64,000 nt of DNA from contig OZ242278.1 in NCBI GenBank assembly GCA_965207475.1, forward strand, positions 551,127 to 615,126, written 5' to 3'. The first letter of the stretch is position 1; every line of letters starts with the position of its first letter. Origin of the DNA: Gammaproteobacteria bacterium. GTDB taxonomy: Bacteria; Pseudomonadota; Gammaproteobacteria; UBA4575. A program made the translations under genes and the position numbers. Below the pieces are notes generated by a model. It did not search any database. It was not told where the DNA came from and saw only the letters and a list, made by a program, of their open reading frames with translations. Positions 31,604-45,454 of this stretch are shown here, one piece after another.

Positions 31604-32941
31604 CTACATTGCTGTCTCATGGAAGGCACCCCGCAAAGAATTTGAATATACCCCGGTGATCTCGAGACGTACAAACCTGCCCCGCACATCACGCGGCGCA
31701 TCGAAATTGACAACACGGTTGTTTTCGGTTCTCCCGGAATACTCCTGGCCCGACTTTCTCGAGTGTCCCTCAACCAGCACCATCTGATCCGTGCCCAGCA
31801 TGGCTTGGGAACGGTCCATGGATGCATTGCGAATGGTTTCCTGCAAGCGCTGAAGCCTGTGCTTCTTCACATCCAGCGAAACGGGATCCTCAAGTGATGC
31901 CGCGGGCGTGCCGGGCCGGCGACTGTAGATGAAGCTGTAGGACTGGTCGAAACCCACTTCTTCCACCAGCTCCATCGTGTCCTCGAAATCCTGGTCCGTT
32001 TCGCCCGGAAAACCGACAATGAAGTCTGATGAAATACTCACATCCGGCCTGTGCCTGCGCAACTTTCTGATGATGGACTTGTACTCCAGTGCCGTGTACC
32101 CGCGTTTCATAGCAGAGAGTATCCTGTCAGAGCCACTTTGGACCGGCAGGTGCACATGATTTACGAGTTCGGGAATCTCAGCATACGCATCGATCAGGTT
32201 GTCCGAAAATTCTACAGGATGGGAACTAGTATACCTTATCCGTTCTATGCCTTCGATATCGCTTACATAGTAAAGCAGCAGGGAAAAATCCACGATATTC
32301 CCGTGGCGGTCCAGCCCGCGGTACCCGTTCACGTTCTGGCCCAGCAATGTGACCTCGCGTGCACCCTGCCCGGCCAGCAAACCGATTTCATGCAACACAT
32401 CATCCAGTGGCCTGCTGAACTCTTCACCCCGCGTATAAGGCACTACACAATACGTGCAGTACTTGCTGCAGCCCTCCATGACTGAGACGTAGGCAACGGG
32501 ACCCTGGTGCCCGGGTTCAGGCAGGCAGTCGAACTTCTCCATCTCCGGGAAGGAAATATCGATGACCGCTTTCCTGCCCGTTGCCGCCTGGTCCAGCAAA
32601 TCGGGCAAGCGGTGAATCGTCTGGGGGCCGAACACAACGTCTACCTGTTTTGCGCGTGCTGCCAGGGACTCCCCTTCCTGACTGGCCACACATCCCCCGA
32701 CACCGATCAGGACATCCGGATTCTTTTCCTTCAAGGGTCGCCACCGACCCAGTTGTGAAAACACTTTTTCCTGTGCCTTTTCACGAATGGAGCATGTGTT
32801 GAGCAACAGGACATCGGCCTTGGACGGTTCATGGGTGATTTCAAAACCACAACCGTGGCGAAGTGCATCCAGCATCCTGCTGGAATCATACTCATTCATC
32901 TGGCATCCCTGTGTTTTGATGAATACTTTTTTAGACATCAA
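31604..32941 (-). CDS. miaB: tRNA-2-methylthio-N6-dimethylallyladenosine synthase
   Basis: 445 aa; N-terminal MTTase domain [20 protein letters not shown]; radical SAM CxxxCxxC (CSKYCTYC); TRAM C-terminus. Confidence 0.96.
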
Positions 32942-32985
32942 GGCTTTCCAAAAAACATATCAGTGTCTTCCGAATCTATTCGATC

Positions 32986-32993
32986 TGTATAAT
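32986..32993 (+). promoter_or_regulatory. candidate extended -10 promoter element (TGTATAAT) upstream of the LPS-kinase-family gene
   Basis: tCTGTATAAT lies ~170 nt upstream of the 33165 start in the miaB-divergent intergenic region. It is the same 9-mer (CTGTATAAT) as the one upstream of pseF. Confidence 0.3.
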
Positions 32994-33164
32994 ACCAGAC
33001 AGTACACGTAACGAAAGCCGTGAGGAAATAACACGAGTATCCGGAAACTTTTCATTTCGACATCCCGCAGGTTCAAGTACATCCCCTGCTCTTGCAGACA
33101 AACGCCATACCACACAAAAATACGATTCATACCTTCCAGAGAAACACTTTCAGTCCGGCTAGAG

Positions 33165-34073
33165 ATGCTATACCACTACAGTCGCACGCAGACCCTGCAC
33201 CAAGGCCGATACAAGGATGGGCAGTACATCACTGCCCCGGATTCCGAATACGCAGAAATGCTGACAAACTGGATTACTTCAGGCGATTTCATGGCCTACG
33301 AAGATGAGCGGTTTCGCCTCAAGCAGGCCCAGGGGCGGCCCCGTAACCTCCTGTACAGTTTTCACCTGCCCGGGATGCAGCAGGCCATGGTGATGAAGGT
33401 CTCGCACATCAGTCCACGGTACCGGCTGTCAAGAAAAATAGACCTGTTCATAACAGGCCTGTACAAGGATTACTGCAAAATCAGTTTTCATGGTGCGATG
33501 GCGCTGCACGAACAGGATCTTCCTGTTGCCAGACCGCTGGCTTTCTGGACCTTCAGGCAGGGCTGCTTCAGGAAAAAAAGCTATTTCTTGTGCAGCAAGC
33601 TTCCCGGCAGTCAATCCCTGAAACAATTGCTGGAATCCTGCCGGCAAAACAATTCTCATCCAGACTTCCACGGAATGGCCAGAAAACTGGCGTCCCTTGT
33701 ACGAAGCATTCATGCTGCCGGTCTGCGCCATGGCGACCTGCATACGGGTAATTTCCTTGCGCATGCCACGGAGCCTGCAGGCAGCCAGGCAAAAAAAATG
33801 CCTGAGTTTAATTTCTTTCTTGTGGATTATGACAAGTGTTCAGAAGTCAAGCTGAAACATCCATGGATAAAAACCGTGTACGACCTGAAAGACTTGAGCG
33901 GCCTGGTCATGCCCACCGTCCGGGACGAGGAATTGCTGGAAATGTACTTCAATGAAACCCCTTCCCCCCGTTCCATCAGGATTTTCAGGTTCTGGAAAAA
34001 CGGTGGTATCAACCTGCGCCGGAGACTGCTGGGACTTCCCCCGAAAAAGGAAAACCGGCATCTTGCAAGCTGA
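33165..34073 (+). CDS. lipopolysaccharide kinase (Kdo/WaaP/InaA) family protein
   Basis: Catalytic loop HGDLHTGNFL and downstream DYDK (DFG-like), typical of the Kdo/WaaP kinase family; 302 aa; reduced GC; first gene of the glycan island. Confidence 0.5.
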   Translation: MLYHYSRTQTLHQGRYKDGQYITAPDSEYAEMLTNWITSGDFMAYEDERFRLKQAQGRPRNLLYSFHLPGMQQAMVMKVSHISPRYRLSRKIDLFITGLYKDYCKISFHGAMALHEQDLPVARPLAFWTFRQGCFRKKSYFLCSKLPGSQSLKQLLESCRQNNSHPDFHGMARKLASLVRSIHAAGLRHGDLHTGNFLAHATEPAGSQAKKMPEFNFFLVDYDKCSEVKLKHPWIKTVYDLKDLSGLVMPTVRDEELLEMYFNETPSPRSIRIFRFWKNGGINLRRRLLGLPPKKENRHLAS

Positions 34074-34096
34074 CTGATGGCCCTGGAAACCTGTTC

Positions 34097-35413
34097 ATGA
34101 CCAAAAAGAAAAACATCCTCCTATGGAAGTTCGCGGATCACTATACGCGTGGCCTGAAAGACCATCTCGCCGACGATCTGGAAATCAAGGTATGGATCGA
34201 CAAGAAGAAATTCAAAGTGCCCACGCATCACATGGATGACCTCTACAAGCAACTGAAGTTTTCGGGACACAGCCCCCGACTGAACATGGATTATCAGCAC
34301 CAGAAGACGTTCGTGGACATTTACAGGAAGGTCATGAGACACACAAATGTCTTCATGTACATGTACAGTCGGTACCCGGCACTCAACGGGGAACACAATT
34401 TCATTGACATGATGGATGCGATGCACGTCTACACCCACCAGTTCATTGACATCCTGACCACCCATCATATCGACTATGTGTTCATGAGCAGGATTCCTCA
34501 CCGGGGTCCTGACCTGATTCTTTACCTGGTCGCCAAGGCACTGGATATCAAGGTCTTCATGCTCCAGCAGACTATTCTGAAAGGCAAGGCGTTTCTGGCC
34601 ACTGACATGCACGAAGTCGGCTCATTGGCCAGTGAAAACGAGGACCTGAAACCGGAAAAGATCCAGCAAAAACATCGAAACGCACTGTATTCAATCAGTA
34701 CCAGGCGAAGAACCAACCCCTACCTCAAGGCTTTCCTTTACCTGTTCAGGTTCGACCTGGACCTGTTGCTGTACCAGATCATGAATGCCCGAAAGAGCAG
34801 CGAATTCAAACGCAACTACACCTCTGCCCTGGCAGGCTCGTTACCCCAGGGAAGATTCGTCTATTTTGCCCTGCACCTGCAGCCTGAATTGACCACGGTC
34901 AGCTGGGGCGGTGAATTCGTAGACCAGGTGCTCGCCATTGAACATCTCAGGTCACTGCTTCCACAAGACTGGAGTATCGTGGTGAAGGAAAATCCCTTGC
35001 AGACTTTTCACTCGCGCGGCCCGCTGTTTTTTGCAAGGCTGAAGAAAATTCCAGGCGTATTCTATGTCGGCAAGGACACGGATACCTTTGACTTGATAGA
35101 AAAGGCAGAATTTGTTTCGACGGTAACAGGAACCGTCGGCATGGAGGCGCTGCGATTCGGCAAAAGAGTACTTGTCTTCGGCAGTGCCCCATACAAGGAA
35201 TTTCCAGGCGTCATCCGCTACTCGGACCGGTTGACCCTGGATGATATCCTGTCAGTACAATTCACCCACCAGGAAGTTGAACTCGCTCACGCCAGGCAAA
35301 AATCAAACATGGTCGATGCGGTAACTACCCCTGACGGCGCCAAAGCCGAAGATTTCTCAGCAGAAGACAACTTTCAGAACCTAGCAGAAATCATCAACCA
35401 AGCCACCAGGTAG
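34097..35413 (+). CDS. capsule-polysaccharide-biosynthesis (KpsS/KpsC-like, PF05159-type) putative keto-sugar glycosyltransferase
   Basis: 438 aa. Motif series (FALHLQPE, IVVKENP, VSTVTGTVGMEALRFGKRVLVFGSAPY) resembles the retaining beta-Kdo transferase (KpsS/KpsC) family. It is not PseG-like: no N-terminal G-rich loop. Assignment is by motif recall only. Confidence 0.4.
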   Translation: MTKKKNILLWKFADHYTRGLKDHLADDLEIKVWIDKKKFKVPTHHMDDLYKQLKFSGHSPRLNMDYQHQKTFVDIYRKVMRHTNVFMYMYSRYPALNGEHNFIDMMDAMHVYTHQFIDILTTHHIDYVFMSRIPHRGPDLILYLVAKALDIKVFMLQQTILKGKAFLATDMHEVGSLASENEDLKPEKIQQKHRNALYSISTRRRTNPYLKAFLYLFRFDLDLLLYQIMNARKSSEFKRNYTSALAGSLPQGRFVYFALHLQPELTTVSWGGEFVDQVLAIEHLRSLLPQDWSIVVKENPLQTFHSRGPLFFARLKKIPGVFYVGKDTDTFDLIEKAEFVSTVTGTVGMEALRFGKRVLVFGSAPYKEFPGVIRYSDRLTLDDILSVQFTHQEVELAHARQKSNMVDAVTTPDGAKAEDFSAEDNFQNLAEIINQATR

Positions 35414-35440
35414 ACCCGCTTGCAGGATGATCTCTCTTTT

Positions 35441-37668
<2,228 letters not shown>

Positions 37669-38052
37669 TCAGGTTGCAATTTCCCATATCCATCTACTCG
37701 CCTGCTCTGCCCAAGAGTGTTACAGCTGTTGCAGCACTACAGGGCAGATAATCAAGAAACCTTCATTACCTGAAACTTCTAAATGCCCTGTTTTCGTATC
37801 AGACAAATTACCTTATTTGGCAGTCATGCTTATTTTCGGTGGAAATCTGGCAAATAACCAATACTGTTTGTTATAAAAGCCGGCCCCGTCAAGTATTGAG
37901 TTCGTGTCCTTCTGATATGATAGTTTTCCATCAAAAACACCAGAGACCAGTAACAGGCATGATCAGGATCTTCTCGAAACTTCTTTAGATCATATCCTCC
38001 GAATGACAATAAAATCTCTTTTGGACAATATGCAAGCCTCAAGCGAAATGCC

Positions 38053-38060
38053 TGTATAAT
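38053..38060 (+). promoter_or_regulatory. candidate extended -10 promoter element (TGTATAAT) upstream of pseF
   Basis: cCTGTATAAT lies 125 nt upstream of the pseF ATG in a 570-bp AT-rich divergent intergenic region; no well-spaced -35 is present. Confidence 0.35.
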
Positions 38061-38184
38061 CTAGCTGAACTGCATCATGGAAGCTGAGAAAATACCCGGA
38101 TCACCCATAATCAATTTCACGACACAGTGATTCAATCTAATCCCGGGCTCCAAACAAGGTTTTACCGACGATGTTTCAGCAGGA

Positions 38185-38889
38185 ATGAGTGAAGCAGTCG
38201 CACTTATCCCAGCGCGTGGTGGCAGTAAGCGCATTCATCGAAAAAACGTAAGAAATTTTCACGGGCGCCCGATGATTGCATGGCCGATAGATGCAGCGCA
38301 CCGTTCTGAGCTATTTAATCGTATAATCGTATCGACAGATGACCATGAAATTGCTGAAACGGCACGCAGAGAAGGGGTAGACGTTCCGTTTCTCAGGCCA
38401 TCTGAGTTGGCCAATGACAAAGTTGGGATCATGCCCGTGGTCCAACACGCAATTCAAGAACTGCATAATGCGGGGATTTTGATCCGCGATCTGTGCCTGA
38501 TCTATGCGACAGCCCCCTTCATTAGGAGCTCCGACCTAAGGAGAGGCCAAGCTATCCTTCACGCCGAACGCAGCGACTTTGCAATATCAGTCACAAGTTT
38601 TCCTTTTCCCATACAACGTGCCCTAAAGAAAACCATGGATGGGCGACTGGCAATGTTTCAGCCCGAAGACTTCAATTCCCGGTCTCAAGACCTGGAACCT
38701 GCATACCATGATGCGGCCCAGTTTTGTTGGGGAACAGCGGAGGCCTGGATTGAAAATCGGTGTATATACGGTTCCAACTCCGTGCCAGTCATGCTTCCTC
38801 GCCACCTTGTACAAGATATAGACAACGAAGAAGACTGGGTAACCGCTGAATGGATGTTCAAAGCGCTTAAAGATGCTGGTGAAATTTGA
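38185..38889 (+). CDS. pseF: pseudaminic acid cytidylyltransferase (CMP-NeuAc synthetase family)
   Basis: N-terminal ALIPARGGSKRI motif of acylneuraminate/pseudaminate cytidylyltransferases; 234 aa; ~48% GC. Confidence 0.8.
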   Translation: MSEAVALIPARGGSKRIHRKNVRNFHGRPMIAWPIDAAHRSELFNRIIVSTDDHEIAETARREGVDVPFLRPSELANDKVGIMPVVQHAIQELHNAGILIRDLCLIYATAPFIRSSDLRRGQAILHAERSDFAISVTSFPFPIQRALKKTMDGRLAMFQPEDFNSRSQDLEPAYHDAAQFCWGTAEAWIENRCIYGSNSVPVMLPRHLVQDIDNEEDWVTAEWMFKALKDAGEI

Positions 38890-39037
38890 CCAGCAGTATT
38901 TCACTCCATCTTAAATCCCTGAAAGCACCGAAAACAAACATACCTCTATCTTGCAGTTGGAACTTGTAGCGGCAGTATTGCCGAAAGACAAACCTGCAAC
39001 ACTTACTGATTCGCCAGCTTTCACGCTTTTCCATCTC

Positions 39038-40099
39038 TCAGCATACGTGTGCTACTTCTGAAACTTTTATCCTTTCTCCTTTGGCATATGAATGCTCGGA
39101 AGCTTTTCCAATAAGTGATTTCCAGTACCGCGGATGTAAACCAAAACCTGGCCTGATTATGCGGATATTGTCAGTGCTGAATATATCCCCTTCTGCTATG
39201 TATGACACAGCATAAATAGACCGTCTATAACGCAGTGACTTCATTTCGTTGACAGATATTCCAAAGCTTTCAGAGCCAATAGATTTTTTAACCAATGCAG
39301 CATCCTCAACAAGTTTCGAAAACTCAGCTTCATCTGCTGAAAAAGAACTATCCACCCCTTCATTCAGGCGTGATTTTGTGAAATGCTTTTCTATAACCGA
39401 GGCACCCAGTGCAATGCTCGCCAATGCGGCCTGATTGCCTACTGTATGATCAGAAAACCCGACGATACATTGATGTTTCTTAGCTAGAAGAGGTATAGAC
39501 GCCAAGTTTACATCGTCGACATTTGCTGGATAATCAGAGGTACATTTCAAAAGAACAAGATTCTCACACCCACTGTCACGGGCAACAGCCACTGCTTCAT
39601 CAATCTCATCTTCAGCAGCGAGACCAGTCGAGATGATCAGCGAACGACCTGTCTCTGCCACTTGTCGAATTAACGGATAATGAACATTCTCAAAGGAAGC
39701 TATCTTATAGGCACATGGTGACAATTTTTCCCAAAACTCGACAGACGTTTCATCAAACACGGAACTGAAGCACTCAAGCTCAATTGTTTTGCAATACTCA
39801 TAAATACTTCTCACCCAATCCCAGTCTGTGTACGCTTTCTTGTACAAGCCATACAGTGTTTGACCAGCCCAGAGACTGTCTGCTTCAGAAATTAGAAAAT
39901 CTTCATTATCAGAATCTATAGTAAGTGTATCTGGAGTGTATGTCTGAAGCTTAAGTGCATTTGCACCCGCCCTTTTTGCAGCTTTTGCGATCTCTATTGC
40001 TTGCTCATAGGACTGGTTATGATTGCCTGACATTTCCGCAATAATATAAGGCCGATACTCAGGCCCAACGGGGACATCCCCCATATATACAACCATCAT
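39038..40099 (-). CDS. pseI: pseudaminic acid synthase (NeuB-family nonulosonic acid synthase)
   Basis: 353 aa NeuB family (IIAEMSGNHN...) with a C-terminal SAF/antifreeze-like domain. Assigned as PseI by the pseB/pseC context. Start overlaps the formyltransferase stop (TAATG). Confidence 0.85.
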   Translation of the reverse strand: MMVVYMGDVPVGPEYRPYIIAEMSGNHNQSYEQAIEIAKAAKRAGANALKLQTYTPDTLTIDSDNEDFLISEADSLWAGQTLYGLYKKAYTDWDWVRSIYEYCKTIELECFSSVFDETSVEFWEKLSPCAYKIASFENVHYPLIRQVAETGRSLIISTGLAAEDEIDEAVAVARDSGCENLVLLKCTSDYPANVDDVNLASIPLLAKKHQCIVGFSDHTVGNQAALASIALGASVIEKHFTKSRLNEGVDSSFSADEAEFSKLVEDAALVKKSIGSESFGISVNEMKSLRYRRSIYAVSYIAEGDIFSTDNIRIIRPGFGLHPRYWKSLIGKASEHSYAKGERIKVSEVAHVC

Positions 40100-40926
40100 T
40101 ACTCTCCAAGCTTGCTCAGCAATTCAGAAATTCTGTTATCGTCTGAATTTATCCGCCTCACTATTTGCGCTGCCTCATCCGGTGCCTTGGCAAATGCAAG
40201 TCTCATCAAATCCATCCAATTTACATTATTATTTCGCCGGGCTGTTTCTATCTCATCAATCAACGACAACTTGCCATGTAAAATCGCAACATCAAGTTCA
40301 TCAAGCCGAGAGACCTCTTCGACAATATTCGAATCCCAACCAGAAAATTCATCTGGAAGATCCTCGACATGATGGTATGACCCATCACCCCTCTGCTTGA
40401 ATGGCACAAATTCATTGCACAGGAGTGCACTTAAATTATCTGAAAACAGCGTTTCAATCTCTCGAACAAGCCTGGTATGAGTATCCCTAAACGTTAGCTC
40501 CTCTTGATCGAAATTTACGTATTTTTGAAAGAGTATTTCGCCAGTATCGATACCTTCATCGACGCAATGTATGGTAACTCCGCTTGGAGTACCCTCGAAA
40601 AATGACCAGAAATTAGGATGTGCGCCCCTGTTGTAAGGCAAATAGCCAATGTGGAGATTAATTATTGCCCGTCTGGCTGTGGAAAGCACGTTTGGCGACA
40701 TAATGTGCCTGTACCCGAAACATATGACTAAATCATATTCAGAAACATCATGGATTTCCTGTTCAGTTTGCCAAACCTCGCAATTATTCCTAAGGAGTAA
40801 ATGTATAAGCGTGGTTTTGTTTTCGTCATATCCTAGAAACAAAACTTTTTGTTTATTCTCTACTGCAGTTTGCTCTTCGGCAGAAACTAAACGAGGTCTC
40901 GTCATCACCTTGTACTCAGCCAACAC
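40099..40926 (-). CDS. formyltransferase-domain protein (Fmt/PurN-like N-terminal domain + ~120-aa acidic C-terminal region)
   Basis: N-terminal DLVICFGYRHIMSPNVLSTARRAIINLHIGYLPYNRGAHPNFWSFFEG...GVTIHCVDEGIDTGEIL matches the formyl_trans_N catalytic core (N...H...D). 275 aa; ~42% GC; translationally coupled to pseI. Confidence 0.7.
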   Translation of the reverse strand: MLAEYKVMTRPRLVSAEEQTAVENKQKVLFLGYDENKTTLIHLLLRNNCEVWQTEQEIHDVSEYDLVICFGYRHIMSPNVLSTARRAIINLHIGYLPYNRGAHPNFWSFFEGTPSGVTIHCVDEGIDTGEILFQKYVNFDQEELTFRDTHTRLVREIETLFSDNLSALLCNEFVPFKQRGDGSYHHVEDLPDEFSGWDSNIVEEVSRLDELDVAILHGKLSLIDEIETARRNNNVNWMDLMRLAFAKAPDEAAQIVRRINSDDNRISELLSKLGE

Positions 40927-41216
40927 TCCAGCTAAAACAAATTTTACTAAAGGGTATCATCTGATGTATTTCAAGGTACATTGAACGTTCCAACCAGTTC
41001 TTGCAGTAGAATGAGGAAATTCCTCAATACCATAGACCAAAGCATGCCTTGTCAGTCGATGATTTCTTGTTCTCTGTGCCTGATGAGTTAATCCATGGAT
41101 GCATTTACCATGAACTGGAATGACAAATCTTTTTATCAGCAAGTATTGAACATCCCTGAAAGCCAGCCTCCAAACCGAAACCTTCCTCAGTTCCAGAAAT
41201 CATGGTCACACCAAAT

Positions 41217-41654
41217 CTAGAAAGGAATATCATCATCAAATTCATCACTTGATGCGCTGGAAGCTGTCTGTTTCGATTCCGGGCCAGGCGGCGCTTCCTG
41301 CGTTATTGCAGTGCTGCCCTTACTGCCCAGCATCTGCATGTCATTCGCCACAATCTCAGTGGTATACCGGTCATTTCCACCCTGGTCCTGCCATTTTCGG
41401 GTCTGCAGCCGCCCTTCCACGTAAACCTGGGAACCTTTCCTCAGGTATTCCCCTGCAATTTCGGCCAACCTGCGGAAAAACACCACGCGGTGCCATTCGG
41501 TCTTCTCGACCTTTTCACCCGAATTCTTGTCCGTCCAGGATTCGGTTGTCGCCAAAGTGATGTTACAAACTGCCTGGCCGCTTGGCATGTACTTAACCTC
41601 GGGGTCTTGCCCCAGGTGGCCGACCAATATTACCTTGTTGATGCCTCTTGCCAT
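41217..41654 (-). CDS. ssb: single-stranded DNA-binding protein
   Basis: [22 protein letters not shown]-fold N-terminus and the canonical acidic C-terminal tip DDDIPF. True ATG at ~41654 with AGGA RBS; the track ORF extends to 41804. Confidence 0.93.
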
Positions 41655-41853
41655 TTTGATGTCCTGCTGGATAGGTTCTTGAGTGCCACTTCGTAACTTG
41701 AGAAATTCCCGGACCCGGTACATAAGGCCGCACCCTCTGCCCACCTGCCAAGCCGGGTAAGTAAGATGCCTGTAAAGAGTGCCTCTAGCTGGTTTTGCAC
41801 TCAAGACAACTTAACACGTATATTAACGTATTTATCCAGTCGCAATTGAAATA

Positions 41854-44722: not shown

Positions 44723-45454
44723 TCAGTCGAACTCGACACCTGTACCGACGGTGATTCCCAGGTTCTCGGCAGCAGACCCGTCCCTGGCTGCAATTTCTAC
44801 CAGGTTGTTCGAGTTGCAGTACCAGAACCCTTCACCTTTCTCCACGCAGTAGAACGCCTCGGCATACCTCAGGCACCGGCCATTGACTCTCAAGACCCGG
44901 CTGGTATCGGATGGATGGAAGGTTATTCCCGTAATTGCATTGCCAAAACGGTCTGTATGTATAACTTCGTAAAGACTGTCAGGCCATCCCGCTCCTTGCA
45001 TCTCACGTGCCGATACAGGTTTCAGGTCCGGCCTTGAGCCTGACACGATGTTCGCAGCAACCGGTGCAAACACATCCCGCCCATGGAAAGTCCTGGATGC
45101 CGGCTCACCCTGCAAGAGAATCTCAAACAACTCCGCTTTGGCAAGTTTTCGATACATGATTGAAAGCAGGCCGTTATCAGGTCCGATAAAGGTATGCCCG
45201 TCTCCCTCCATCAAAACCGGAGCCCGGCTCGACCCGACACCAGGGTCTACTACTGCCACTACAACAGACCGTTGCGGGAGGTATTCCAGGTACCCTGCCA
45301 GCAAATAGGCGGATGCCTTGGGATTCATGCCGGGCAGGCAGTGGTCCAGGTCGATCACCCTCGCATGGGAAGCCCTGCGGTAGATGACGGACTTGAGCTG
45401 GCCTACGTAGCCGCCTGATGATCCGTAGTCTGTTGCCAGAACGATAGGGCGCAT
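44723..45454 (-). CDS. SAM hydroxide adenosyltransferase / SAM hydrolase family protein (DUF62)
   Basis: 243 aa; LATDYGSSGGYVGQLK N-terminus and overall pattern of the PF01887 (fluorinase-like SAM hydrolase) family. Confidence 0.65.
   Translation of the reverse strand: MRPIVLATDYGSSGGYVGQLKSVIYRRASHARVIDLDHCLPGMNPKASAYLLAGYLEYLPQRSVVVAVVDPGVGSSRAPVLMEGDGHTFIGPDNGLLSIMYRKLAKAELFEILLQGEPASRTFHGRDVFAPVAANIVSGSRPDLKPVSAREMQGAGWPDSLYEVIHTDRFGNAITGITFHPSDTSRVLRVNGRCLRYAEAFYCVEKGEGFWYCNSNNLVEIAARDGSAAENLGITVGTGVEFD

Follow-up and report, generated by a model that had tools for sequence, protein, structure and literature searches.

A putative pseudaminic acid transferase encoded beside a Kdo/WaaP-family kinase in a gammaproteobacterial pse gene island

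Dedicated transferases for pseudaminic acid (Pse) are scarcely characterised, and in the literature consulted the described cases are KpsS1, shown in vitro, and a Tannerella enzyme, supported genetically. KpsS1 of Acinetobacter baumannii is a demonstrated retaining Pse5Ac7Ac alpha-2,6 transferase of family GT118, as cited in PMC12887879, where Glu132 of a YE motif is proposed as the catalytic base. A PF05159 protein of the Pse O-antigen cluster of Escherichia coli O165 has been classed as KpsS1-related (PMC4487303), and it is this protein that stands proxy for KpsS1 in our comparisons with the KpsS1 type. In Tannerella forsythia, Tanf_01245 / BFO_1060 is a Pse/Leg transferase of the protein O-glycan and is encoded beside a nonulosonate module (PMC5420450). 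A further set of relatives comprises the retaining beta-Kdo transferases KpsC/KpsS (GT107), WbbB (GT99) and KrkA, the last of which is called GT140 in PMC12887879.

Here, we describe a kinase gene and a transferase gene that adjoin a Pse biosynthesis module in the genome of a gammaproteobacterium. The window, by which we mean the whole 64-kb stretch of DNA that was analysed, contains the following features at this locus:

31604-32941 (miaB) to 41217 onward (ssb/uvrA): bounds of the island, which beside the gene pair holds pseC, pseB, pseF, pseI and a formyltransferase-like gene
33165..34073, plus strand: kinase gene, 302 aa, ATG start; Kdo/WaaP-family kinase paralog
34074..34096, plus strand: spacer between kinase and transferase genes, 23 nt, from the sequence
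34097..35413, plus strand: transferase gene, 438 aa, ATG start; putative CMP-pseudaminic-acid transferase, PF05159
35441..36598, minus strand: pseC (UDP-4-amino-4,6-dideoxy-AltNAc transaminase), TIGR03588, 552 bits, cut-off 423.5
36595..37614, minus strand: pseB (inverting UDP-GlcNAc 4,6-dehydratase), TIGR03589, 552.5 bits, cut-off 407.75
38185..38889, plus strand: pseF (CMP-pseudaminic acid synthetase), TIGR03584, 291.3 bits, cut-off 205.7
39038..40099, minus strand: pseI (pseudaminic acid synthase), TIGR03586, 423.2 bits, cut-off 340.25
40099..40926, minus strand: formyltransferase-like gene abutting pseI, PF00551, E 1.8e-18

An earlier note on this DNA had placed two plus-strand genes 23 nt apart at the left edge of an island, and both the coordinates and the spacer were confirmed: the pair forms the left edge of a region of lower GC content (45-52%, against about 55-56% in the flanks). 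Both open reading frames are real genes, chance ORFs being excluded by their Pfam matches and by full-length homologs of both proteins in other assemblies (43-100% identity). The two genes are probably co-transcribed; spacers of 9-24 nt also separate kinase and transferase in four other loci (L001, L002, L084 and L086), and promoter and terminator scans around the pair gave no signal above chance. Neither product has transmembrane segments, and the pI of each is at least 9.0. Four of the six enzymes of the CMP-Pse pathway (PseB, PseC, PseH, PseG, PseI and PseF) pass equivalog cut-offs in the window, namely PseB, PseC, PseI and PseF; tblastn of the whole 64 kb found neither PseG nor PseH, and the pathway is therefore incomplete there. 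PseG may be encoded elsewhere in the genome. The formyltransferase-like product, whose best NCBIfam match is a sugar N-formyltransferase (67.7 bits, below the cut-off), could possibly be an N-formyl or N-acyl transferase that replaces PseH, and in locus L085 a formyltransferase-like domain is fused to PseI. The pseF product presumably makes the donor substrate of the 438-aa protein, which is the sole glycosyltransferase of the island that carries pseB, pseC, pseF and pseI.

Both proteins score above the Pfam gathering cut-offs, a check that the earlier note had proposed. The transferase matches PF05159 (Capsule_synth; E 9.1e-7, 29.1 bits against a cut-off of 20) over residues 286-372 only, and the kinase matches PF06293 (Kdo/WaaP; E 2.9e-12, 46.9 bits against 21.3) over residues 113-244. 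Because both matches are partial, family placement needed structural and profile evidence. All 25 aligned members of the transferase family match PF05159 (best E 6.6e-13), and the family profile matches KpsC and WbbB by sequence. The protein has the two-domain GT-B-like fold of retaining ulosonic-acid transferases (GT99, GT107, GT118 and KrkA-type), and its top structural matches are WbbB (GT99; the best), KpsC (GT107) and KrkA. TagF/TagB-type enzymes gave no better Pfam or fold match than the Kdo transferases, and assignment to the unrelated TagF-type family, which the earlier note had named as a refuting outcome, is not supported. The family is large and unnamed, with 2,751 clusters at E<=1e-30 (at least 2,700 clusters at 50% identity). 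Judged from its sequences and gene neighbourhoods, it is far larger than the characterised families and tracks modules for Pse and other nonulosonates: members lie beside nonulosonate genes across Bacteroidota, Verrucomicrobiota, Campylobacterota, Rhizobiaceae, Selenomonas and archaeal MAGs, and among 70 distant family loci a nonulosonate-pathway gene is found within 10 kb in 54 and a PseB of at least 50% identity in 34. A tblastn search of plasmids with the transferase returned only six partial matches, all of them hypothetical proteins.

We place this family as a probable sister to the KpsS1 type. The hhalign comparison with the O165 proxy (99.1%, E 5e-19, 271 columns) spans residues 97-379 and hence both domains, and BLASTP gives 26% identity (E 4e-14), with identity about 20-26% overall. 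Alignments of the family profile to single KpsS or KpsC sequences, or to a KpsS alignment, cover only residues ~285-401 (KpsS 88.6%, KpsC-N 96.4%); BLASTP against KpsS gives 23% identity at E 0.01, full-length similarity to GT107 was not found, and only about 75-115 residues align with the retaining beta-Kdo transferases. The transferase is thus far closer to the O165 protein than to KpsS, for which E is about 3e-6 over the C-terminal part only. The O165 protein and the window transferase both belong to PF05159, are encoded next to a Pse biosynthesis module, and have in common an L-H-x-[QH]-P-E loop, in which Glu occupies the position of the nucleophilic Asp of Kdo transferases. The earlier proposal of Pse transfer is strengthened by this two-domain homology and by the nonulosonate gene neighbours across phyla. 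The matches listed in a database search with E. coli KpsS were all KpsS orthologs, with identities of 63% or more. In the Pse O-antigen cluster of E. coli strain S42, pse genes are paired with a GT52-type transferase, and that cluster was for this reason of no use for comparison.

The motif series that the earlier note had associated with KpsS and KpsC is present in this PF05159 protein, as HLQPE (residues 260-264), VKENP (296-300) and STVTGTVGMEALRFGKRVLVFG (341-362), but in variant form, with HxxxE for QxxxD and NP for HP, which sets the protein apart from the retaining beta-Kdo transferases. The first two motifs map as follows:

34874..34888, plus strand: HLQPE loop, residues 260-264; His260 at the motif Gln position and Glu264 at the nucleophilic Asp position of QxxxD
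34982..34996, plus strand: VKENP, residues 296-300; counterpart of the CMP-binding HP, with Asn299 for His

A literal QxxxD is absent, and the loop reads H260-L-Q-P-E264-L-T266. Since alignments to KpsS and KpsC stop at the CMP-binding half, motif equivalence was bridged through the O165 protein. Going from the transferase family to the O165 protein and on to KpsS, His260 corresponds to Gln and Glu264 to Asp, the latter equivalence resting on an alignment chain in which one link has only 62% hhalign probability. Gln262, Pro263 and Glu264 occur in 25 of 25 family members and His260 in 23 of 25; with Glu264 invariant at the Asp position, a carboxylate is therefore conserved there, but as Glu. 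The HLQPE loop and the HP-equivalent are 35 residues apart, compared with 34-38 in KpsC, KpsS and the O165 protein, and residues 264-266 have low confidence in the structure model. Another register, in which Gln262 would be the QxxxD Gln and Thr266 would replace the Asp, was dropped because the O165-to-KpsS alignment and strand-anchored spacing gave the equivalences above. At the CMP-binding site, where a literal HP is likewise absent, K-E-N299-P300 aligns to VKVHP of KpsC and IKHHP of KpsS; the window transferase has Asn-Pro, whereas the O165 protein has His-Met and KpsS His-Pro. Among 113 full-length homologs KENP is found in 107, and EHP or DHP in 6. In contrast to the KpsS1 type, the YE glutamate (Glu132 in KpsS1, E128 in O165) is missing: O165 Y127-E128 aligns to Met130-Ser131 (family consensus F-s), and slightly downstream stand an invariant His135 (25/25) and a near-invariant Asp139 (24/25). 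The 80 loci of the genome scan were found by HLQ and VKENP pattern seeding, which makes motif conservation among them circular; motif statistics were therefore taken from the k-mer-seeded homolog set.

Genomic context also separates the window from these relatives. It differs from the KpsS1 type in being a minimal island without wzx or wzy and in having a kinase partner, and from the retaining beta-Kdo transferases in a donor context that is Pse, without kps export genes. The Tannerella enzymes resemble it in that a nonulosonate transferase is encoded beside a nonulosonate module, and there is weak C-terminal nucleotide-binding similarity (matches in 9 of 25 family members, the best at E 2.4e-7). 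However, they carry HP and D/E-D/E-G motifs and are described as TagB-like, and the window transferase scores 19.5 bits on the Tannerella model NF046086, against a cut-off of 200, and is not of the same family.

For the kinase, two active-site elements carry the argument:

33729..33752, plus strand: kinase catalytic loop HGDLHTGN, residues 189-196; from the translation
33825-33827, plus strand: kinase metal-binding Asp221 (LVDYD), 3' of the catalytic loop

The HGDLHxGN loop of the Kdo/heptose kinase family, reported in the earlier note, is indeed present as HGDLHTGN, and PF06293 is matched by 22 of 24 kinase homologs. The beta3 lysine K78 and residues H189, D191, N196 and D221 show no variation across 20 sequences, which settles the check on the catalytic Asp and Asn (D191 and N196). 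The protein has the full residue set for an active protein-kinase-like fold and is predicted to be active; a pseudokinase is ruled out, as all catalytic residues are invariant. It is predicted to be soluble, with a pI of 9.7 and a strongly basic C-terminal tail. Membership of the LPS-core kinase family holds at the level of PF06293, but the protein is neither KdkA nor WaaP. Its best NCBIfam match is KdkA (E 3.7e-12) and the second is RfaP (E 3e-7); scores on the equivalog models are 45.8 bits for KdkA (NF002475, cut-off 142) and 29.6 bits for WaaP/RfaP (NF011703, cut-off 170). These sub-cut-off scores, together with the true KdkA that coexists in relatives (213 bits in the related genome L002), rule out both identities, and because of that coexistence the paralog must have another substrate. 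KdkA acts on a 3-deoxy-2-ulosonic acid borne by a lipid-linked glycan, a substrate class that resembles Pse chemically; the window kinase and the true KdkA from a related genome share 27% identity over a 132-residue alignment. WaaP (RfaP, the LPS core heptose(I) kinase) is the closest structural match in a comparison set that had no KdkA structure, but identity to it is about 15%, and the window kinase differs from it in an extra N-terminal segment, in the basic C-terminal tail, and in being linked to a nonulosonate transferase without waaG/waaQ-type core genes. The kinase is confined to one clade of ~2 Mb gammaproteobacterial MAGs.

Of 14 independent kinase loci in that clade, 11 have the kinase gene immediately 5' of the transferase gene and in the same orientation. 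In one more the two genes are 6 kb apart within a single Pse cluster, and in the remaining two (L087 and L088) the kinase belongs to a glycan cluster that has no member of this transferase family. That the genes adjoin in 11 of 14 loci whose kinases span 34-93% identity speaks for a functional link, and the kinase-linked transferases form one clade (32/32). The pairing suggested by the earlier note thus stands as recurrent adjacency but not as an obligate two-gene module, which is ruled out by the kinase-only loci and by the absence of the kinase from 70/70 distant transferase family loci. The gene pair is thus separable, and kinase and transferase may each act on a different residue. In three related genomes, waaA-kdkA-heptosyltransferase genes adjoin the pair or are close to it. 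The gene order in L008 is tolC-like, waaA, kdkA, GT9 heptosyltransferase, kinase, transferase; in L002/L010 the pair is 6 kb from waaA-kdkA-GT9 and adjoins a GT25 LOS-type transferase; and L007 has a kdkA homolog within 10 kb of the pair. In several clade members (L009-L013) PseB/PseC are not encoded close to the pair, and their donor may therefore be a nonulosonate other than Pse.

We favour, with moderate confidence, a role for the pair in Pse capping and phosphorylation of a cell-surface glycolipid, with the LPS/LOS core as acceptor. Gene context points to CMP-Pse as the donor, and homology to a retaining mechanism and to the residue roles. An LPS-core acceptor is suggested by synteny in the three related genomes and by nothing in the window, where a search for an LPS link turned up neither waa genes nor kdkA nor a further glycosyltransferase; phosphorylation of the transferase's acceptor or product by the kinase is likewise something we infer. 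According to this model, PseB, PseC, the formyltransferase-like enzyme, PseI and PseF would make CMP-activated Pse. The 438-aa transferase, a predicted soluble, basic, peripheral-membrane enzyme, would use CMP-Pse, most likely working on the cytoplasmic side of the inner membrane with a lipid-linked glycan as the acceptor of Pse. If it resembles its structural relatives, catalysis would proceed via a covalent sugar-enzyme intermediate, in which Glu264 would replace the usual Asp nucleophile, Asn299-Pro300 would take over CMP binding from His-Pro, and the base acting on the acceptor hydroxyl would probably be His135 or Asp139. The 302-aa protein, as a putative ATP-dependent sugar kinase and lineage-specific paralog of the WaaP/KdkA superfamily, would then add phosphate to the same glycoconjugate, its target most likely being the LPS/LOS core oligosaccharide.

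The least improbable of the alternatives, and a possible one, is that the same enzymes serve another acceptor and that the kinase modifies core or glycan independently, having only the variable glycan island in common with the transferase. Repeat units are the targets of characterised or predicted relatives, namely KpsS1 and Gtr59 in Acinetobacter K loci and the O165 protein, whose gene lies between wzx and wzy, and Tanf_01245 acts on a protein O-glycan. However, neither the window nor the 20-kb surroundings of the pair in the kinase-linked clade showed a wzx, wzy, ABC transporter or initiating transferase. The pair in L086/L012 adjoins GT-D, GT2 and GT11 genes and a giant Ig-repeat protein, as another acceptor would predict, whereas in L008 it abuts waaA-kdkA-GT9 and in L002 it is near the same genes. 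As for the kinase, independence is consistent with its occurrence in L087 and L088 without the transferase family, but is at odds with the conserved adjacency described above.

KdkA phosphorylates Kdo at O4, and Pse is, like Kdo, a 3-deoxy-2-ulosonic acid whose 4-OH is free. In this respect, the kinase might phosphorylate the transferred nonulosonate itself, for example at O4, giving a phospho-Pse epitope. We regard this as doubtful. The order of the NCBIfam matches, with KdkA ahead of RfaP, the free 4-OH common to Kdo and Pse, the need for another substrate in genomes that retain a true KdkA, and the tightly conserved kinase-then-transferase gene order all speak for it; kinases without the transferase family in L087 and L088 speak against it, as does a best structural match, in a comparison without a KdkA structure, to WaaP, a heptose kinase. 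In addition, a limited literature search found no report of phosphorylated Pse or of a kinase acting on Pse-containing LOS. A more inclusive proposal, which we consider unlikely in its entirety, is that the transferase family is a very large sister of GT118 that handles Pse and related nonulosonic acids with a rewired active site (Glu nucleophile, Asn-Pro and His/Asp base), and that the clade-specific kinase phosphorylates Pse-capped lipooligosaccharide, possibly Pse itself. If true, this would amount to a phospho-nonulosonate surface epitope new to description, in one ~2 Mb gammaproteobacterial clade.

A further, improbable reading makes the pair a chain-terminating or capping module that would place a nonulosonate cap and a phosphate cap at the glycan non-reducing end, for export or length control. 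WbbB, the top structural match of the transferase, adds a beta-Kdo cap, and WbdD, which combines a kinase with a methyltransferase, adds a phosphate cap. An FkbM-family methyltransferase gene immediately precedes that of the kinase in L001/L005, L002/L010 and L087, which recalls WbdD and could yield a phosphomethyl cap there. Nevertheless, no methyltransferase is found next to the kinase in the window, neither an ABC transporter (Wzm/Wzt) nor a polymerising glycosyltransferase occurs in any context examined, and the kinase is WaaP-like. Finally, it is very improbable that the transferase uses CMP-Kdo and acts like KpsS/KpsC as a beta-Kdo transferase on a lipid acceptor: it is a PF05159 member and every one of its nearest solved structures is a Kdo transferase, but pseF is in the island while kdsB, kpsF-type and kps export genes are not found near the pair, the family co-localises with nonulosonate genes in 54/70 loci, and the O165 Pse-cluster protein is its far closer relative.

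If Pse capping with phosphorylation of the LPS/LOS core is correct, current understanding is not overturned; rather, a known enzyme class is extended. The transferase bears on whether a Glu nucleophile and loss of the CMP-binding His are compatible with retaining Kdo transferase chemistry, which passes through a covalent intermediate, and its family would supply annotators with a rule by which to recognise Pse transferases. With the kinase as its partner, it points to an LPS core that bears both Pse and phosphate in a small-genome lineage of marine gammaproteobacteria. The names of several related MAGs (Ca. Porisulfidus and an SB-series bin) suggest sponge association, in which case surface-glycan mimicry would be a plausible theme.

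We show that the kinase and transferase genes described in the earlier note are real, that they lie where it placed them and that its family assignments were right:

33165-34073, plus strand: kinase gene, 302 aa, PF06293 (Kdo/WaaP kinases), E 2.9e-12
34097-35413, plus strand: transferase gene, 438 aa, PF05159 (Capsule_synth), E 9.1e-7

Both domain scores exceed the gathering threshold, with each match spanning only part of its protein. Separated by 23 nt, the two genes stand at the start of an island of lower GC content (45-52%, versus about 55-56% in the flanks), bordered by the housekeeping genes leuS, manC, lnt, corC, ybeY, phoH and miaB on the left and ssb, uvrA, rpoA, rpsD and secY on the right. 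The remaining island genes are pseC, pseB, pseF and pseI, all four above NCBIfam equivalog cut-offs, and a formyltransferase-like gene. The lower GC content suggests horizontal exchange of this glycan island (32942-41216). The island is a variable cassette: in the comparison loci L001 and L005 the same miaB-adjacent site holds other cargo (FkbM methyltransferase, a metallo-hydrolase-like gene, a methyltransferase, WbqC and an FAD oxidoreductase), and a nearly identical island is found in L007, near a kdkA homolog.

Structural comparison of the 438-aa protein gave figures of 14.3 with WbbB (GT99), 13.8 and 13.7 with the two modules of KpsC (GT107), 11.3 with the best generic GT-B/epimerase, 11.0 with KrkA (GT140 per PMC12887879) and 9.0 with Cps3D, the best TagF-like enzyme. 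Since WbbB and KpsC rank above Cps3D, the TagF-type assignment that the earlier note had named as refuting its proposal finds no footing. At the sequence level, KpsC (E 9e-8) and WbbB (E 3e-4) are also matched by the family profile. No curated NCBIfam model for this transferase family was found, the sole match being BFO_1060, a Tannerella Pse/Leg-transferase family, which scores 19.5 bits (cut-off 200). The family is large: HMMER, run over all 1.84 billion representative proteins, gave 2,751 clusters at E<=1e-30. The window pair offers a way into this extensive, uncharacterised group of nonulosonate transferases.

The proposal that this enzyme transfers pseudaminic acid (Pse) gained strength from two directions. 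Window proteins were used to search 80 related loci taken from species-representative genomes, 70 of them distant (29-37% identity) and spanning Bacteroidota, Verrucomicrobiota, Campylobacterota, Rhizobiaceae, Selenomonas, cyanobacteria and one archaeal MAG. A nonulosonate-pathway gene lies within 10 kb in 54 of these 70 distant loci, a PseI/NeuB-family synthase is present in 42, and PseB of at least 50% identity in 34. Two PF05159 subfamilies, KpsS1 and Gtr59, are known to adjoin nonulosonate modules (PMC4487303), and KpsS1 is, as cited in PMC12887879, a retaining Pse5Ac7Ac transferase and the founder of GT118. The E. coli O165 O-antigen cluster (pseB-C-F-G-I, wzx, a 477-aa PF05159 protein, wzy) encodes a protein classed as KpsS1-related (PMC4487303), which the window family matches over both domains (hhalign 99.1%, E 5e-19, 271 columns; BLASTP 26% identity, E 4e-14). 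KpsS and KpsC align far more poorly, and over the CMP-binding half only. Judged through this O165 proxy, the 438-aa enzyme appears more closely related to KpsS1-type proteins than to KpsS or KpsC. Given the nonulosonate synteny and the O165 homology, the donor is very probably CMP-Pse from the island's own PseF, and Kdo is an unlikely transferred sugar. In the E. coli S42 Pse O-antigen cluster (L090:17404-19295) there is no PF05159 transferase; beside the flippase gene is a short gene (94 aa) with a GT52-family annotation that looks fragmented (a 282-bp CDS, then a 519-bp hypothetical). Pse modules thus seem to have at least three unrelated classes of enzyme as partners.

The motifs quoted in the earlier note are all present in the translations, although as variants (HxxxE, NP) rather than the canonical KpsS/KpsC forms. 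Retaining Kdo transferases have a conserved QxxxD, comprising Gln and the nucleophilic Asp, and a CMP-binding HP motif, and in KpsS1 the glutamate of a YE motif is proposed as base (PMC12887879). When aligned with E. coli-type references taken from a plasmid record, VKENP falls on KpsC VKVHP and KpsS IKHHP, so that Asn299 takes the place of the His of the HP motif; among 113 full-length homologs, this position is Asn in 107 and His in 6. The loop L-H260-L-Q-P-E264 aligns with O165 L-H-Y-H-P-E, which in turn aligns with KpsS L-Q233-V-Y-N-D237 (62% probability), so that through this chain His260 would occupy the position of the motif Gln and the invariant Glu264 that of the nucleophilic Asp. This assignment agrees with the distance between the acid and the HP equivalent (35 residues, versus 34 in both KpsC-N and KpsC-C, 38 in KpsS and 34 in O165). 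Y127-E128 of the O165 protein corresponds to the YE motif of KpsS1, whereas the aligned residues here are Met130-Ser131, with His135 (25/25) and Asp139 (24/25) conserved just downstream. We conclude that this family is a sister of the KpsS1 type in which all three signature elements are altered, although the fold is retained and the nucleophile position is still acidic. Catalysis could proceed with net retention through a covalent Pse-Glu264 intermediate, on a loop modelled with low confidence.

Unless another part of the genome supplies pseG, the Pse pathway encoded by the island (33165-40926) is incomplete: tblastn found neither pseG (UDP-sugar hydrolase) nor pseH anywhere in positions 1-64000. 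The same layout is seen in L004 and L007, the nearest relatives, whereas PseG is clear in L085 (288 bits) and a weakly PseG-like gene occurs in L001. Two adjoining genes bear on the pathway:

39038-40099, minus strand: pseI
40099-40926, minus strand: formyltransferase-like gene, PF00551, best NCBIfam match a sugar N-formyltransferase (67.7 bits, below cut-off)

The second ends at the base where pseI begins, and L085 (13407-15044) encodes this domain and PseI together as a single fused protein of 545 aa. This enzyme may replace PseH, N-formylating the PseC product to give 7-N-formyl Pse.

For the kinase, a search of 5.8 billion proteins gave only 24 homologs, all from gammaproteobacterial MAGs of about 1.5-2.5 Mb labelled Ca. 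Oxydemutatoraceae, Ca. Porisulfidus, Chromatiales or only Gammaproteobacteria. Identification as KdkA (45.8 bits, equivalog cut-off 142) or WaaP (29.6 bits, cut-off 170) was rejected, and related genomes have a true KdkA of 213 bits as well as the kinase paralog. In 14 independent loci with at least 10 kb of context, the kinase lies directly upstream of the transferase on the same strand in 11, at the opposite end of the same Pse cluster in one (L085, with PseG in the upstream slot), and in a glycan cluster without the window transferase family in two (L087, L088). It is absent from all 70 distant transferase loci, and the kinase-linked transferases form one clade (32/32); linkage of the pair is thus strong within one lineage without being obligate. 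In these variable clusters the kinase behaves as one glycan-decorating enzyme among several, beside methyl-, sulfo- and carbamoyl-transferases. Both proteins are basic and lack transmembrane segments, and the 35-residue tail that closes the kinase contains 10 Lys/Arg, features that fit enzymes held peripherally at the inner membrane, on its cytoplasmic side.

No acceptor-identifying genes occur within the window. In L008 the order is tolC-like, waaA, kdkA, GT9 heptosyltransferase, kinase, transferase; in L002/L010 the pair follows waaA-kdkA-GT9 at a distance of 6 kb and is itself closely followed by a GT25 (LOS-type) transferase; and the kdkA homolog of L007 is within 10 kb. No wzx, wzy or ABC-transporter genes were found in any context of the clade. 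Together with this synteny in three genomes, their absence leads us to favour, with some reserve, the LPS/LOS core as acceptor, with a core sugar or Pse itself phosphorylated. It is plausible that the kinase acts on the acceptor of the transferase, and the product could be a phosphorylated, Pse-bearing LOS in a little-studied bacterial lineage. The main rival, a repeat-unit or protein-glycan acceptor with the kinase acting independently, would suit the two clusters where the kinase occurs apart from this transferase family, and is doubtful against the missing flippase, polymerase and exporter genes. Phospho-Pse as such, which adjacency to the transferase would allow, is improbable. In three independent genomes (L001:8171-8980; L002:8379-9029; L087:9229-10050) the gene directly before the kinase encodes an FkbM-family methyltransferase, an arrangement that recalls WbdD, an O-antigen terminator with kinase-plus-methyltransferase logic; this methyltransferase is absent from the window, and a chain-terminating cap is a shade less probable again. 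Kdo transfer, despite the KpsC-like fold, is very improbable beside the Pse genes.

Divergent clade members carry a GFO/IDH/MocA oxidoreductase gene and a radical-SAM gene of about 450 aa just upstream of the pair (L084:6622-8983; L086:5255-7610; L012:4962-7401; L013:3108-5498), which suggests an extra conserved sugar-tailoring step without counterpart in the window. In Ca. Porisulfidus-type genomes, a glycan cluster of GT-D, GT2, GT11 and the kinase-transferase pair lies beside a gene for a giant protein, of 2,403 aa in L086, whose matches to Ig-like/CARDB-type repeats are weak (L086:16356-21317; L012:16345-21252). Two further genes lie to the right of the island:

41217-41804, minus strand: ssb, longest ORF, 195 aa, TTG start
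44723-45454, minus strand: 243-aa gene resembling (R)-S-adenosyl-L-methionine hydrolase, though its 176.7 bits do not reach the cut-off of 350

The SSB domain begins at residue 55; translation probably starts about 50 codons further in, and the intergenic region that ssb shares with uvrA (41854 onward) would then be wider. The 243-aa gene has uvrA on one side and the rpoA-rpsD block of ribosomal genes on the other.
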